From positions 1-13,411 of IMG/VR virus record IMGVR_UViG_2548876950_000004: a DNA stretch of 13,411 nucleotides. The stretch is one strand, 5' to 3'. The DNA comes from a virus (lineage: Duplodnaviria; Heunggongvirae; Uroviricota; Caudoviricetes). The notes below the pieces were generated by a model. That model saw only the letters and a program-made list of their open reading frames with translations. It was not told the origin of the DNA and ran no database searches. Position numbers and translations under genes: made by a program. Each line of letters begins with the position of its first letter. Position 1 is the first letter of the stretch. This document shows, in pieces, positions 6,134 to 12,659 of the stretch.

Positions 6134-7555
6134 ATGACCACTATTACCAAAGAGCGACTGCTGACAATCAAGCAGTGGCGCGAAACATACGGACCTGGTA
6201 GCAACGTTGTACTGCCAGCAGAAGAAGCGGAAGAACTGGCACGGATTGCACTGGCATCATTGGAAGCAGATCCAGTTAAACGAGTTAACTCAGATCAGAT
6301 GCACCGAGTCTGCTTAGAAGCTAATCGCTATTTAGATAAATATGACGCGATGGCGAAAGAGGTAAATAAGTTGCTTGGACGCATCGCCCCGCCAGCGCCA
6401 GTATTTAACGGCGAATACGGTGACGCATATCAGGGCGCTCGTGAAGACCTGTCCATCTGGAAACGGCGAGCGCTTGAAGCTGATGAGCACGTTCGGCGAC
6501 TGGAGCAAATCAATGACCACATGGTGAAAGAGGCGCAGGGAGAATCACGCATGGGCGAGCCTGTAATACGTGAGCCAGCACCGGTAGTGCCTGAAGAAGC
6601 AACTCCGGAAAACGTAGAAATGCTCTCTGGCTATGTTTCAACGTACAAATTAACCGATAGCGAGCGCGATATTGCTGCCGAAATATGGAACGCCTGCCGC
6701 GCCGCCATGCTTCAGTCAGGAAACTTTCGGGAAAACAAGAATTCGTCAACCAATAATTTTCGGGAAATCGAGGAAACGTCAACCAACTATCCGGCAATTC
6801 CTAGTGAGGTGTTGTCCGCAATCCTGAAGGTTGCCAGGATTCGTGCCGATTTCGATGATTTTGACGGTGACAGGCGAGGTATCGGTGATTGTCTGGATGA
6901 GGCTGAGCAAGAGCTTATCGTTACCATTAACAAATATGCCAGTCAGTTGGCAGCAGAACCGATAGCGACTAATGACGTTCGAGAGCAGCAGACAGCCGTT
7001 CCGCCAGTTCCGGAAATACAGGCTGATGTCGCGCAAGCAATTGAAAATCTCAAGCAGAAGCTAGTGGAATGTAATCGCTATAACTACTGCGCAGATGCAG
7101 TTAAAGGCGTAGAGGATGCCTGCCGTGCTGTTAGCTATAGCCAAGCCGACAATCAACCAGCATCTGGCAACCAGGCTGCCGAATCCAATCGCGGTAATGA
7201 GTGGACCGGCAATCCTGATATTGATAACGCCATCATCATGCTCGACCGCATAGATACGCTGGAAAATTGCGATGATGACCGTATTGAGGCTGTTAAGGCT
7301 GTTTTGCGTAGACTGGCTGGCAACTATCCGGTAACTCCGGATGGTTGGATAAGCTGTAGTGAGCGAATGCCGAATACCAAAACAGCCGTTCTTGTTGCCG
7401 TGGAGTTTGACAGGAAAGGTGACTGGCGAATGAAATGGGCTACTTACATCCCGGGGCATCCTGACGCTAATGATGGGTGGATAATTCCTGGTGCGTCGTG
7501 GAAACCGTCACACTGGATGCCGCTACCAGAACCGCCGCAGGAGGTGCGCCAATGA
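6134..7555 (+). CDS. Large hypothetical phage protein with DUF551-like C-terminus, 473 aa
   Basis: AAGGTGA ribosome-binding site; acidic, low-complexity central region; C-terminal WISCSERMP...SHWMPLPEPP matches the recalled DUF551 signature. Confidence 0.6.
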   Translation: MTTITKERLLTIKQWRETYGPGSNVVLPAEEAEELARIALASLEADPVKRVNSDQMHRVCLEANRYLDKYDAMAKEVNKLLGRIAPPAPVFNGEYGDAYQGAREDLSIWKRRALEADEHVRRLEQINDHMVKEAQGESRMGEPVIREPAPVVPEEATPENVEMLSGYVSTYKLTDSERDIAAEIWNACRAAMLQSGNFRENKNSSTNNFREIEETSTNYPAIPSEVLSAILKVARIRADFDDFDGDRRGIGDCLDEAEQELIVTINKYASQLAAEPIATNDVREQQTAVPPVPEIQADVAQAIENLKQKLVECNRYNYCADAVKGVEDACRAVSYSQADNQPASGNQAAESNRGNEWTGNPDIDNAIIMLDRIDTLENCDDDRIEAVKAVLRRLAGNYPVTPDGWISCSERMPNTKTAVLVAVEFDRKGDWRMKWATYIPGHPDANDGWIIPGASWKPSHWMPLPEPPQEVRQ

Positions 7556-7635
7556 TCTGGCCTGAAGCCTTTGCAATTACAGGCGTTGCTATAGCTATTG
7601 ATTTTTTAGTATATGTTATTTGTCGGTGGGGGTAA
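7552..7635 (+). CDS. Tiny hydrophobic peptide, 27 aa
   Basis: ATG overlaps the upstream stop (ATGA) with GGAGGTG upstream; translation MIWPEAFAITGVAIAIDFLVYVICRWG is a single predicted transmembrane helix. Below ORF-track cutoff. Confidence 0.4.
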   Translation: MIWPEAFAITGVAIAIDFLVYVICRWG

Positions 7636-7670: not shown

Positions 7671-7775
7671 ATGTCGGATGATATTTCACTGGCAATGGAA
7701 GGTGCGCTGGCTGTTATTGCTGTTGTGGGCGTTTACTGCCTGGTTGTGTTTTTGATGGATCGACTAGGGAACTGA
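7671..7775 (+). CDS. Tiny hydrophobic peptide, 34 aa
   Basis: AAAGGAGGGAAT-ATG; translation MSDDISLAMEGALAVIAVVGVYCLVVFLMDRLGN with a central hydrophobic helix. Below ORF-track cutoff. Confidence 0.45.
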   Translation: MSDDISLAMEGALAVIAVVGVYCLVVFLMDRLGN

Positions 7776-7783
7776 ATTCATTA

Positions 7784-7805
7784 CGATATGGGAATTCCCA
7801 TATCG
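7784..7805. repeat. Perfect 22-bp palindrome CGATATGGGAATTCCCATATCG
   Basis: Exact self-complement with a central GAATTC, 9 bp after the 34-aa peptide stop and upstream of the hok locus; no T-run follows, so not a classical terminator. Confidence 0.7.
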
Positions 7806-7909
7806 GGTAAAAACGGTTTGCGGTAAAGCGAGAGTTAAGTAGAATTGCTGCGGGTGCTTGAGGCTATCTGCCTCGGGCATGCCACCGTAAGGCAGACAGA
7901 GAAAAGCCC

Positions 7910-7975
7910 CAGTTAACATTACGCGTCCGGCAAGACGCTTAACATTAATCTGAGGCCATATCTATGCTCTACACA
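7910..7975 (-). ncRNA. Expected position of the Sok-like antisense RNA of the hok locus (approximate, not delimited)
   Basis: Placed by analogy with hok/sok architecture, where the antisense RNA overlaps the leader and upstream start region. Promoter and 3' end could not be pinned from sequence. Confidence 0.25.
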
Positions 7976-8020
7976 CGTAGGTTAGCCTCTTACGTGCCGA
8001 AAGGCAAGGAGAAGCAGGCT

Positions 8021-8176
8021 ATGAAGCAGCAAAAGGCGATGTTAATCGCCCTGATCGTCATCTGTTTAACCGTCATAGTGACGGCACTGGTAACGAGGAA
8101 AGACCTCTGCGAGGTACGAATCCGAACCGGTCAGACGGAGGTCGCTGTCTTCGTAGACTACGAATCTGAGAAGTAA
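8021..8176 (+). CDS. hok: Hok/Gef-family type I toxin, 51 aa; in-frame upstream start at 7964 gives a 70-aa Mok-like form
   Basis: MKQQKAMLIALIVICLTVIVTALVTRKDLCEVRIRTGQTEVAVFVDYESEK has the hallmark Hok/Gef transmembrane segment and TRKDLCEV...GQTEVA motif; AGGAG upstream of ATG 8021. Confidence 0.8.
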   Translation: MKQQKAMLIALIVICLTVIVTALVTRKDLCEVRIRTGQTEVAVFVDYESEK

Positions 8177-8244
8177 GAGACCAGGCGGGGGAGTAATCTC
8201 CCGCCACCTCTGATGTGTCAGGCATCCTCAACGCACCCGCACTA

Positions 8245-8267
8245 AACCCGCTTCGGCGGGTTTTTTG
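8245..8267 (+). terminator. Intrinsic terminator at the 3' end of the hok transcript
   Basis: Hairpin AACCCGC-TTCG-GCGGGTT followed by TTTTTTGTT; a second GC-rich hairpin lies just upstream (about 8192-8210). Confidence 0.7.
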
Positions 8268-8451
8268 TTGCGTGCTGAATGCGCAGGGTGAAAAATAACC
8301 ATATATTTGATTATATACACAACAAAAAATAAAAGTCATTGTACCTGCACATTAAATAATCAAATATACAGCGTGAAATAAATATTTTTCAGATTAATAT
8401 TTTTGTCTCTATGTGGATATAACCGTTTGTACTTATAAACTCGGAGGCATC

Positions 8452-10176: not shown

Positions 10177-10202
10177 CTCAATCTGTTATCCGGGGCTATA
10201 TT
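10173..10202 (+). promoter_or_regulatory. PR'-like late promoter (TTGACT-N18-TATATT)
   Basis: -35 TTGACT at 10173-10178 overlaps the stop of the upstream gene; -10 TATATT at 10197-10202. Confidence 0.55.
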
Positions 10203-10264
10203 CCTCACGCGCCAGCAAAATCTGGCGTCGGGATTAGGAACCCCGGATAGAGACCGCGACAGAC

Positions 10265-10287
10265 ACACGCCGCGAGCGTGTTTTTTA
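10265..10287 (+). terminator. tR'-like intrinsic terminator ending a short (about 80 nt) leader RNA
   Basis: Hairpin ACACGC-CGCGA-GCGTGT followed by TTTTTTATT, about 60-80 nt downstream of the PR'-like promoter. Confidence 0.65.
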
Positions 10288-10449
10288 TTGTCGTATGCAC
10301 GCGCACATCTGAATTATGGTGGGGCGTATGGGGGAGCTGAAAAGCTCGCCGGTTGGTTTCCCGGTAGTTCCTAACCCTGTACGTCTCACCACCCGATGAT
10401 TAGGAACCTGACGGTGGTGATGGTTTAGAAACCACCAGAGGGCGTCATT

Positions 10450-12349: not shown

Positions 12350-12425
12350 GGCCCTTTAGCTCAGTGGTGAGAGCGAGCGACTCATAATCGCCAGGTCGCT
12401 GGTTCAAATCCAGCAAGGGCCACCA
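12350..12425 (+). tRNA. tRNA with CAU anticodon (Ile2/Met type, ileX-like)
   Basis: Cloverleaf by hand: acceptor GGCCCTT/AAGGGCC, anticodon loop CTCATAA, T-loop TTCAAAT, 3' CCA. Close to the host ileX sequence as I recall it. Confidence 0.7.
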
Positions 12426-12426
12426 A

Positions 12427-12503
12427 CCGCCACTAGCTCATCAGGAAAGAGCGTCAACCCTTTAAGTTGAGTGTGCGAGGTTCGAGTCCCCGGTGGCGGT
12501 CCA
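12427..12503 (+). tRNA. Atypical tRNA-like gene, anticodon UUU (Lys-like), possibly a pseudo-tRNA
   Basis: Acceptor CCGCCAC/GTGGCGG with CCA end, D-arm and TTCGAGT T-loop present, but C at position 33, a C1:G72 start and one T-stem mismatch. Confidence 0.45.
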
Positions 12504-12505
12504 GT

Positions 12506-12581
<76 letters not shown>

Positions 12582-12584
12582 TAT

Positions 12585-12659
<75 letters not shown>

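Follow-up and report, generated by a model that had tools for sequence, protein, structure and literature searches.

Does the short Hok-like reading frame carried by this prophage belong to a complete type I toxin-antitoxin system, where does the antisense RNA lie, and what would such a system do for the phage that carries it? The window, i.e., the whole 13,411-nucleotide stretch of viral DNA that was analysed (IMG/VR record IMGVR_UViG_2548876950_000004), had been predicted from its letters to hold a Hok/Gef-family type I toxin locus inside a prophage, and this proved right by every test applied. We are highly confident that positions 7818-8270 form a complete hok/mok/sok type I toxin-antitoxin cassette in a lambdoid prophage, and equally that the locus is an allele of hokW-mokW-sokW of Shiga-toxin phage 933W/Sp5, a self-contained module of approximately 450 bp. 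As such, it is an ordinary copy of a well-studied and already known module. The transcript ends, 3' processing, RNase III cleavage and toxicity given for it below are those expected from its homologues, from which all four are transferred.

Setting and limits of the cassette

On the same strand as the locus, replication-type genes lie on one side and DUF1367, YbcO and a Q-like DUF1133 gene on the other, with tRNAs and a holin beyond the latter. The predicted prophage setting is thereby borne out, and the cassette is placed in the early-right (nin-like) region, between the replication-type genes and the Q-like gene. The original prediction had given its extent as 7780-8270; the end at 8270 stands, but the functional start lies at the hok promoter, around 7818, and not at 7780. 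A separate 22-bp palindrome at 7784-7805 is outside the cassette.

Across approximately 120 loci, homology breakpoints cluster at the promoter and just after the fbi box (see below) or the terminator. The left limit of homology between the window and other loci falls at 7805-7844, and the right limit to 933W and many other loci at 8238-8243, just past fbi. It is this clustering of junctions that indicates the cassette nature of the locus. The window allele occurs at at least 99% identity in 23 complete-genome records, and E. coli genomes hold a median of two and a maximum of ten related copies, with 10,987 places in all across 5,426 complete E. coli genomes. Copies that are 100% identical in RefSeq E. 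coli are annotated 'Hok/Gef family protein', and this is the only label at the identical locus, the antisense RNA having been omitted by automated annotation.

The toxin and mok reading frames

The toxin gene hok (8021-8176, plus strand) encodes a 51-residue protein with 100% identity to HokW of 933W/Sp5. It aligns with the entire profile of the Pfam family PF01848, HOK_GEF (positions 1-42 of 42), scoring 81 bits where the cut-off is 22 (E = 4.3e-23), and both results uphold the earlier description of this protein as Hok-like. The mok reading frame (7964-8176, plus strand, 70 codons) is homologous to the annotated mokW and mokC. Its ATG at 7964 lies 57 nt upstream of the hok ATG at 8021 in the same frame, the stop is common to both, and initiation at mok adds a 19-residue N-terminal extension to Hok.

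Each start is preceded by a Shine-Dalgarno motif read from the sequence. That of mok, GAGG at 7952-7955, stands 8 nt before the AUG, is near-invariant in an alignment of 30 homologues from Escherichia, Shigella, Kluyvera, Citrobacter, Pantoea and Photorhabdus (hereafter alignment A2), and is also the mok Shine-Dalgarno motif of plasmid R1 (PMC9841398). That of hok, GGAG at 8008-8011, stands 9 nt before its AUG, and AAGGAG is conserved there in A2. The hok AUG is buried in a predicted stem (7983-7991 with 8012-8021), which is consistent with translation dependent on mok.

The in-frame start at 7964 had been described as unlike the textbook arrangement. It is real and does differ from plasmid R1, where the mok-hok offset is 58 nt, as it also is in K-12 hokB, but it is no departure from the family norm. 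A 57-nt offset with a shared stop is annotated for mokW/hokW of 933W and for mokC/hokC of E. coli K-12, and in relatives mok is most often in frame (28 of 36 genome loci and 42 of 54 viral loci). The out-of-frame mok with a separate stop that marks the R1 type is not found at the window locus, nor does it define the family. Offsets of 58 and 56 nt are also present among near-identical loci, with mok at +1 in the former and a 19-codon mok ending in AUGA in the latter. In R1, the translation of mok up to the hok Shine-Dalgarno motif matters and the Mok peptide does not (PMC9841398), and three mok frames among near-identical loci fit the view that it is the act of translating mok that matters.

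The hok messenger RNA and its folds

The hok (mok-hok) mRNA is predicted to run from 7852 to the T run of the terminator at 8270 (plus strand, approximately 419 nt). Its 5' end was set from the start of the Rfam model RF01794 and from the motif GGGYGCUUGA, which is invariant in 30 homologues. This model, which covers the hok leader/sok region in the sense of the hok mRNA, matches 7852-8026 on the plus strand over its full length (model positions 1-157) with 112.6 bits, the gathering score being 59 (E = 1.8e-25). The candidate hok/mok promoter (7818-7845, plus strand) has a weak −35 element, either TTGCGG at 7818-7823 or TTTGCG at 7817-7822, and a −10 element, TAGAAT at 7840-7845, separated by 6 nt from the conserved mRNA 5' end GGGUGCUUGAGG downstream of it; at an R1-type locus (L004), TATGAT precedes GGCGCUUGAGG at the same spacing.

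The predicted fold of the 419-nt transcript has an energy of −175.7 kcal/mol (z = −7.5 against dinucleotide shuffles). In A2, 80.4% of the cells of this structure were paired, as opposed to 36-44% when the partners were slid, and both-sided changes numbered 200, a value that none of 500 shuffles reached, where 107 were expected. At the core of the fold, the tac (translational activator) box at the 5' end of the mRNA (7852-7863, plus strand) pairs with the fbi (fold-back inhibition) box, CCUCAACGCACCC, at 8226-8238 (plus strand), forming 12 bp (6 + 6 with one bulge) in the unconstrained minimum-energy fold. Projecting the window fold on A2 under-counts the distal half of this helix (helix 1) because the Photorhabdus loci, which have no one-base bulge, are out of register by one column. 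The pairing was therefore re-tested by per-sequence duplex prediction, in which all 30 homologues retained it, with energies of −17 to −26 kcal/mol where shuffled tails gave −13.5 ± 2.3 kcal/mol. Compensatory changes in the duplex include U:A to C:G and G:C to A:U.

In the nascent transcript, tac would instead be held in a local hairpin (7854-7880, plus strand; 7854-7864 with 7870-7880, 11 bp), which in silico is the minimum-energy structure of both the first 49 and the first 112 nt and is the counterpart of the metastable tac hairpin known from R1 (PMC9841398). The ucb box, an anti-Shine-Dalgarno element (AAGCCCC, 7904-7910, plus strand), pairs with the mok Shine-Dalgarno region, 7906-7912 with 7950-7956, in both the full-length and the nascent folds. 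The box itself is almost invariant in A2, and helix 4, which encloses this pairing, has 89% of its cells paired and six pairs changed on both sides. In 3'-truncated mRNA, tac and ucb could form a 7-bp stem with one bulge, although the energy model places this open form (−57.6 kcal/mol) 5.6 kcal/mol above the closed 5' domain (−63.2 kcal/mol). The published open conformation was thus not reproduced by folding 3'-truncated RNAs, and tac and ucb are invariant, which leaves covariation uninformative about their pairing. As the open form is not predicted, the refolding step in the mechanism proposed below is taken only from the R1 literature.

Both of the strong 3' hairpins reported in the original prediction were recovered. 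The first, at 8184-8205 (plus strand; 8184-8192 with 8197-8205, 9 bp), has 86.6% of its cells paired in A2 (helix 20) and three both-sided pairs. By analogy with R1, in which suppressor mutations fall in the last stem-loop of the truncated hok mRNA (PMC9841398), this stem-loop probably closes and protects the processed, active mRNA at its 3' end. The second is the stem of an intrinsic terminator found by a terminator scan and in the folds (8244-8270, plus strand), i.e., 8 GC-rich base pairs (8244-8251 with 8256-8263) closed by a UUCG loop and followed by a T run. It shows many both-sided changes in A2 (helix 22) and is absent from 933W, while other loci have different terminators at the same place. 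The key 3' element between the two hairpins, the fbi box, had been missed. Rfam matches to rsmX and isrK over 8179-8266 were rejected as hairpin-plus-terminator look-alikes (E approximately 0.1, far below the gathering score).

The Sok antisense RNA

The antisense RNA, left undelimited in the original prediction, can be delimited by alignment with the experimentally detected sokW and with K-12 sokC. Sok is predicted on the minus strand from 7972 to approximately 7902 (approximately 71 nt), with coordinates projected through a gap-free alignment from the sokW annotated in 933W (1595-1665 of that locus) and a 3' end that is uncertain within 7896-7902. It would consist of a 15-nt single-stranded 5' tail, a long hairpin (7957-7906) and a U-rich 3' end, with a predicted fold of −32.2 kcal/mol (z = −4.5), and it shares 9 nt at its 5' end with mok, precisely the overlap that sokC has with mokC in K-12.

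The putative Sok promoter (7979-8007, minus strand) combines a −35 element, TTGCCT at 8007-8002, with a 17-nt spacer and a −10 element, TAACCT at 7984-7979, the same layout as in an R1-type locus (TTGCGC-17-TATCCT). The promoter region, 7977-8020, is 100% identical to that of 933W, in which −10 mutations abolished sokW antitoxin activity (PMC8621323). In its coordinates, in the 9 nt shared with mok and in promoter layout, the predicted Sok agrees with sokW, sokC and R1. A consensus promoter scan reported neither the hok nor the Sok promoter, both falling below its 9-of-12 threshold. A plus-strand candidate, TTAACA-18-TATGCT, at 7939-7968 across the mok start was treated as a chance match, because five sites against 2.6 ± 1.4 expected were found and no homologous promoter is known.

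The target of the Sok 5' tail, i.e., the mok initiation region including codons 2-4 (7957-7975, plus strand), is hypervariable. Six of its 19 nucleotides differ from 933W, as opposed to one of 156 in hok, and it forms the entropy peak across 47 distinct loci. Among close relatives, the tail/target segment is a hot spot of variability, while the Sok hairpin and hok are nearly invariant. In the predicted fold of the truncated mRNA the target forms a hairpin (7960-7966 with 7976-7982) with a loop at 7967-7975. The YUNR U-turn motif in the Sok-target loop is a rate enhancer described for R1, and is accessory rather than defining. It is absent from this loop in the window (7966-7979), where 933W has CUGA, and it is present in 37 of the 47 related distinct loci and absent from ten.

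Copies resident in the same genome differ at 6-8 of the 16 positions of the tail, against 0-1 of 55 in the hairpin, and the predicted tail duplexes of cognate pairs reach −22 to −26 kcal/mol, those of non-cognate pairs −3.5 to −13 kcal/mol. Tentatively, and at somewhat less than even odds, we suggest that the Sok tail and its target are a fast-evolving specificity determinant, and that the locus is an orthogonal 'immunity type' of hokW-sokW. No description of such tail specificity was found in a non-exhaustive search of the literature.

Comparison with known systems

The closest known system is hokW-mokW-sokW of 933W/Sp5 (AF125520; Takada et al. 2021, PMC8621323), the toxin of which is identical. 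The DNA of the annotated 933W locus is 95.7% identical over window positions 7808-8243, from promoter to fbi; mok is likewise in frame, with 70 codons and an offset of 57 nt, the hairpin and the promoter of Sok show no difference, and both loci reside in lambdoid prophages of E. coli. The differences lie in six of the first 16 nucleotides of Sok (the recognition tail), in the loop of the 5' hairpin, in the target loop, which in the window lacks CUGA (YUNR), and in the UUCG-loop terminator that the window copy has of its own after fbi. The genomic positions also differ, hokW being next to the large gene L0134 at the right-hand end of the 933W record, whereas the window locus lies in the early-right region, between the replication genes and the Q-like gene.

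K-12 hokC (gef)-mokC-sokC belongs to the same clade, with 80% protein identity and the same tac sequence, GGGUGCUUGAGG. It shares the in-frame mok at 57 nt with a common stop and a Sok that starts 9 nt inside mok, but its fbi region is gone, IS186 adjoins it, and its Sok hairpin is 18 nt shorter. Intact hokC loci in other Escherichia species have kept fbi. The hok-mok-sok (parB) locus of plasmid R1 has the same elements in the same order as the window, i.e., tac, metastable hairpin, ucb, mok Shine-Dalgarno motif, mok, Sok promoter (inside the mok leader), hok Shine-Dalgarno motif, hok, 3' stem-loop, fbi and terminator. It differs in being plasmid-borne, with a role in plasmid stabilisation, and in having its mok 58 nt upstream and out of frame, with 70 codons and its own stop. 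HokW, and hence the window toxin, has 44% identity and 69% similarity to R1 Hok (Takada et al., PMC8621323). A plasmid variant (L004) encodes an R1-identical Hok, yet has mok in frame at 57 nt. In the hokD (relF) type the toxin is 92% identical, and the NCBI pipeline names many close relatives of the window locus hokD. Truncated hokD-type loci (L011, L013, L111 and L126) are homologous only from approximately 8007 and lack tac, mok and Sok, whereas the window locus is complete.

Proposed mechanism

The anatomy described above is that of the window locus itself, and the dynamics that follow are modelled on R1 hok/sok and hokW-sokW. A weak constitutive promoter would produce a stable mRNA of approximately 419 nt from 7852, the 5' tac box of which would be kept in the local hairpin at the nascent stage. 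In the finished transcript, tac-fbi pairing together with the sequestration of the mok Shine-Dalgarno motif by ucb would prevent both translation and Sok binding. Slow trimming of the 3' end back to the stem-loop at 8184-8205 would then remove fbi, whereupon the 5' domain could refold into a translatable and Sok-accessible form. The short-lived Sok, transcribed on the minus strand from its own stronger promoter inside the mok leader, would use its single-stranded tail at the 5' end to pair with the region where mok is initiated, blocking mok translation and triggering cleavage; partial dependence on RNase III and Hfq has been found for hokW-sokW (PMC8621323). For as long as Sok is made hok would stay silent, because its start is buried in a stem and requires ribosomes arriving from mok. 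Once Sok synthesis stops, Mok and Hok would be translated, and Hok would insert in the inner membrane and collapse it.

Which protein is made, and is the locus intact?

With mok in frame, ribosomes that initiate there would make a 70-residue, N-extended Hok, and this product might be a second toxin isoform. That the extended protein is the true toxin, the 51-residue form not being made separately, is a stronger claim that we consider very improbable. It would suit a clade in which the in-frame arrangement is the commonest, and the extension, as read from the sequence, is basic and lies ahead of the transmembrane helix, an order that could preserve topology. Yet the hok GGAG and AUG are conserved even where mok is in frame, near-identical loci with 58- or 56-nt offsets mark the extension as dispensable, and mok translation in R1 counts only as far as the hok Shine-Dalgarno motif (PMC9841398). 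Moreover pBAD24-hokW, which carries hokW without the rest of the locus (51 residues according to the paper), is toxic (PMC8621323). A literature search on mokC/hokC for a 70-residue form returned only the remark that mokC completely overlaps hokC, and the hokW paper gives no band sizes that separate the two products (PMC8621323). A toxin of 51 residues is the reading preferred here, and its locus could be a non-functional relic, like several chromosomal hok loci of K-12, only at the far end of improbability. Decay does occur among relatives, as in the loci homologous only from approximately 8007, L041 among them, which lack leader and Sok (L041 also has a frameshifted reading frame), and in the K-12 hokC copy without fbi and with IS186 adjoining. 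In the window all elements are intact, with the toxin being the active HokW, the Sok promoter that of 933W, tac-fbi pairing perfect, and both Shine-Dalgarno motifs and AUGs in place, and the allele is kept at at least 99% identity in the 23 complete-genome records.

What does the cassette do for the prophage?

Prophage stabilisation and abortive infection, the roles suggested in the original prediction, are not the best supported; those demonstrated for the identical toxin are lysis and phage release (PMC8621323). HokW is located in the inner membrane, is toxic when induced and is neutralised by sokW, and RecA-dependent induction leads to the loss of sokW and the production of HokW. This type I system speeds lysis and gives approximately two-fold more phage released after induction, the yield without the locus being about half (PMC8621323). 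[quoted passage not shown] Because the window locus and hokW of 933W occupy different places in their phage genomes, what was seen in Sp5 may not apply to the window locus. Addiction-like stabilisation is possible as a second role; as the main one, i.e., the killing of cells that lose or excise the prophage as in the post-segregational killing of R1, it is unlikely. A stable folded mRNA with a labile Sok is the exact anatomy that gives post-segregational killing in R1 (PMC9841398), hok genes are approximately four-fold enriched in prophages (bioRxiv 10.1101/2025.08.07.668861), and the annotation of 933W reads 'prophage maintenance'. However, no experiment shows prophage stabilisation by hokW-type loci, deletion of the Sp5 locus had no effect on growth without induction, the measured phenotype being lysis and phage release (PMC8621323), and E. 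coli genomes with a median of two, and up to ten, related copies argue against it. Abortive infection, in which a lytic superinfecting phage would stop host transcription, Sok would decay and Hok would kill the cell ahead of phage release, is improbable. Prophages often carry defence genes (bioRxiv 10.1101/2025.08.07.668861), and Pecota and Wood (1996, cited in PMC8621323 and PMC10305079) reported lower T4 plating with R1 hok/sok, but a 2026 re-test found no protection against T4 by R1 hok/Sok in two strains and two plasmid backbones (PMC13047441), hok is not enriched near defence systems (bioRxiv 10.1101/2025.08.07.668861), and no defence genes were identified adjoining the locus.

Conclusions

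The finding itself adds little, in that it places a known addiction/lysis-assist module in the prophage, albeit with exact coordinates for its parts. The frame of mok is free to vary (57, 58 and 56 nt among near-identical loci), in support of the idea that translation of mok as such is all that counts, and this variation warns annotators not to treat the 70-residue reading frame as a distinct protein. The Sok recognition tail is the diverging part of the cassette, and could explain the coexistence of many copies in a single genome with no cross-talk. If the tail does determine specificity, the numerous hok/sok copies in pathogenic E. coli (up to ten per genome) would be independently wired switches, each of which would report the state of its own prophage.

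Identity of the locus

The original prediction of a Hok/Gef-family type I toxin locus in the prophage is supported, and the locus is a real, intact and already known hok/mok/sok cassette. A 70-codon frame on the plus strand runs from the predicted upstream start, ATG 7964, to 8176, and ATG 8021, 57 nt further 3' in the same frame, opens a 51-aa product. This protein, proposed to be Hok-like, covers the whole Pfam Hok/Gef profile with E=4.3e-23 and a score of 81 bits (cut-off 22), and its sequence is identical to HokW. The best-annotated phage match is the Shiga-toxin phage 933W (AF125520), with 95.7% identity over 7808-8243, and at the matching stretch its record lists mokW and hokW together with antisense sokW. 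The extent had been put at 7780-8270; the locus is real, but its functional start lies at about 7818, not 7780. Copies of the 491-bp stretch that are 100% identical are found in E. coli chromosomes of RefSeq, with 'Hok/Gef family protein' as the sole annotation, and related sequence is carried by 4,725 of the 5,426 complete E. coli genomes (median two places per genome, maximum ten).

E. coli-type hok, ~89-100% identical, was also encountered on 275- and 431-bp contigs labelled Acinetobacter idrijaensis and Xanthomonas pisi, on a 3-kb MAG contig assigned to 'Candidatus Scatousia' (contig loci L017, L025 and L052) and in PP818812.1, a record named Actinobacillus phage vB_Apl-pPE4; all four are probably contamination or mislabelling. 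One 5.4-kb viral contig (L113) holds two hok gene copies, at 2388 and 4870, ~2.5 kb apart.

Anatomy of the hok mRNA and Sok

The anatomy was derived by comparing the window with 933W, E. coli K-12 hokC and an R1-type plasmid locus, together with RNA folding, and the leader and fold-back elements of known hok loci were thereby located. On the plus strand, the putative hok promoter has a -10 TAGAAT at 7840-7845 and a weak -35, and the mRNA is predicted to begin at 7852. Folded without constraints, the 419-nt RNA has a minimum-energy structure (-175.7 kcal/mol, z=-7.5) in which the 5' activator tac (7852-7863) pairs with the 3' fold-back inhibition element fbi (8226-8238). In the predicted folding of the nascent RNA, a metastable hairpin formed by 7854-7864 and 7870-7880 predominates. 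The anti-Shine-Dalgarno box ucb (7904-7910) pairs with the mok Shine-Dalgarno region (GAGG, 7952-7955); that of hok, GGAG, is at 8008-8011, and folding buries the hok AUG in a stem of 7983-7991 with 8012-8021. The two strong 3' hairpins of the original prediction were confirmed as a 9-bp stem-loop in the fold at 8184-8205 and a hairpin at 8244-8263 (8 bp, UUCG loop), which with its T run makes up a terminator-like element at 8244-8270.

Rfam RF01794 matches the leader at 7852-8026 on the plus strand (112.6 bits; gathering score 59). This model, named 'sok antitoxin', describes the sense strand, because its consensus extends from the 5' end of the hok mRNA as far as the AUG of hok; locating Sok from the match requires its strand to be inverted. 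The antisense RNA, which had been left undelimited, can be placed at 7972 to ~7902 of the minus strand (71 nt), with the coordinates carried over from the annotated sokW without gaps. The overlap of its putative 5' end with mok is 9 nt, precisely that of K-12 sokC with mokC, and its predicted fold (-32.2 kcal/mol, z=-4.5) has an unpaired 5' tail followed by a long hairpin and a U-rich terminus. The Sok promoter, TTGCCT-17-TAACCT (8007-7979, minus strand), is laid out as in R1, and its region is 100% identical to that of 933W, where -10 mutations abolished antitoxin activity (PMC8621323). The YUNR motif is absent from the Sok-target loop of the window allele.

Conservation of the RNA structure

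A single scan of species-representative genomes gave 47 loci, and 30 distinct full-length mRNAs were aligned. When the window fold was projected on this alignment, standard pairs occupied 80.4% of cells, as against 36-44% with partners slid by 1-3 columns, and there were 200 both-sided changes versus 107 ± 8 in shuffles, none of the 500 shuffles reaching as high. At tac position 4 the pair with fbi is U:A in 18 sequences and C:G in 10, a covariation joined by further compensatory changes from G12:C and G11:C to A:U. Per-sequence prediction returned the tac-fbi duplex in 30/30 sequences at -17 to -26 kcal/mol, compared with -13.5 ± 2.3 for shuffled tails. The refolded, open form of the truncated mRNA was not reproduced by folding: its tac/ucb stem is feasible, but the energy model puts it 5.6 kcal/mol above the closed form, and the two boxes are invariant.

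Reading frame of mok

The in-frame mok start had been described as a departure from the textbook arrangement, which holds with respect to R1 (57 versus 58 nt), but it is the usual state in the clade. The mok and hok AUGs of R1 lie at 116-118 and 174-176 (PMC9841398), and the R1/R100-type sequence with its 58-nt offset is found at ≥99% identity in 2,661 plasmid records; K-12 mokB/hokB likewise has 58. The in-frame form is already annotated in mokW/hokW and mokC/hokC, and the 57-nt offset occurs in 28/36 scorable genome loci (58 nt in 5, 56 nt in 3) and in 42/54 scorable distinct viral loci (58 nt in 9, 56 nt in 3). A 56-nt offset makes mok a 19-codon ORF that ends in an AUGA overlap. In the mRNA alignment these frame shifts arise from single-base indels in the leader. 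Plasmid pMTY1886_IncFII (L004, 444-659) encodes a Hok identical to that of R1, but its 71-aa mok, offset by 57 nt, is in frame, and therefore the mok frame flips even among near-identical plasmid loci; in the plasmid's gene table only a shortened Hok CDS (558-659) appears.

Variability of the Sok tail

Differences from 933W are strongly clustered, with 6/19 nt in the Sok 5' tail target (7957-7975) and 8/48 nt in 7852-7899, seven of which fall in the loop of the 5' hairpin (7882-7890), compared with 0/57 in the Sok hairpin and 1/156 in hok. Entropy across 47 distinct close relatives peaks where the window and 933W differ. In close hokW/hokD-type loci, variation concentrates at 7957-7975 and in the hairpin loops 7882-7890 and 8190-8199. 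Copies co-resident in one genome differ at 6-8/16 tail positions and at 0-1/55 hairpin positions, and non-cognate Sok tail duplexes are much weaker, which together suggest from sequence that Sok specificity may have diversified.

Boundaries and genomic setting

In ~120 loci, the part homologous to the window begins within 7805-7844 and stops within 8238-8272, break-points that coincide with the promoter and with positions just 3' of fbi or the terminator. Because they cluster in this way, the unit (~450 bp) is a discrete module in many flanks and behaves like a mobile one inserted into them. Truncated hokD-type copies (L011, L013, L041, L111 and L126) are homologous only from ~8007, keeping the toxin gene and 3' UTR without tac, mok or Sok; L041 additionally has a disrupted ORF.

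With neighbouring genes named from the identical RefSeq region and Pfam, the cassette lies between replication-type genes and the DUF1367, YbcO and Q-like genes, on their strand, with tRNAs and a holin coming after, a position in the phage genome that differs from that of hokW in 933W. Directly 5' lie two tiny hydrophobic ORFs, 7477-7635 (52 aa) and 7672-7775 (34 aa from ATG 7672), neither with a Pfam match, the second being a RefSeq 'hypothetical protein'. Just past its stop, a perfect 22-bp palindrome, CGATATGGGAATTCCCATATCG (7784-7805), adjoins the left junction of the cassette (7805/7808); it is not a canonical terminator, since no T run follows on either strand. Further 3', Rfam models c4-a1b1 (10196-10249), isrK (10209-10286) and C4 antisense RNA (10312-10396) score above their gathering thresholds just 3' of the Q-like DUF1133 gene and 5' of an ORF6N-domain gene, and the region resembles an antisense immunity (antirepressor control) module of the P1/P7 type. 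Between an HTH gene and the holin are four tandem tRNA genes (12350-12656; Ile, Lys, Thr and Gly per annotation of the identical RefSeq region).

Biological role

What was obtained on the window itself is the sequence anatomy and its conservation. By analogy with R1 and hokW-sokW, the folded mRNA would be stable and activated by slow 3' processing, Sok would block mok and thereby hok, and loss of Sok would lead to killing at the membrane. HokW is toxic, and hokW-sokW resides in the Sakai prophage Sp5 (Takada et al. 2021; PMC8621323). There, sokW expressed from its own promoter neutralises HokW in a manner partly dependent on RNase III and Hfq, and after RecA-dependent induction sokW is lost and HokW appears in the inner membrane; deletion of hokW-sokW delayed growth arrest and halved phage release (PMC8621323).

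A contribution to abortive infection, suggested in the original prediction, has lost support, as a 2026 re-test saw no protection against T4 (PMC13047441). Addiction-like stabilisation of the prophage is a possible role. We favour induction-coupled help with lysis as the role that the cassette may play in its phage, because the identical toxin does so in Sp5.
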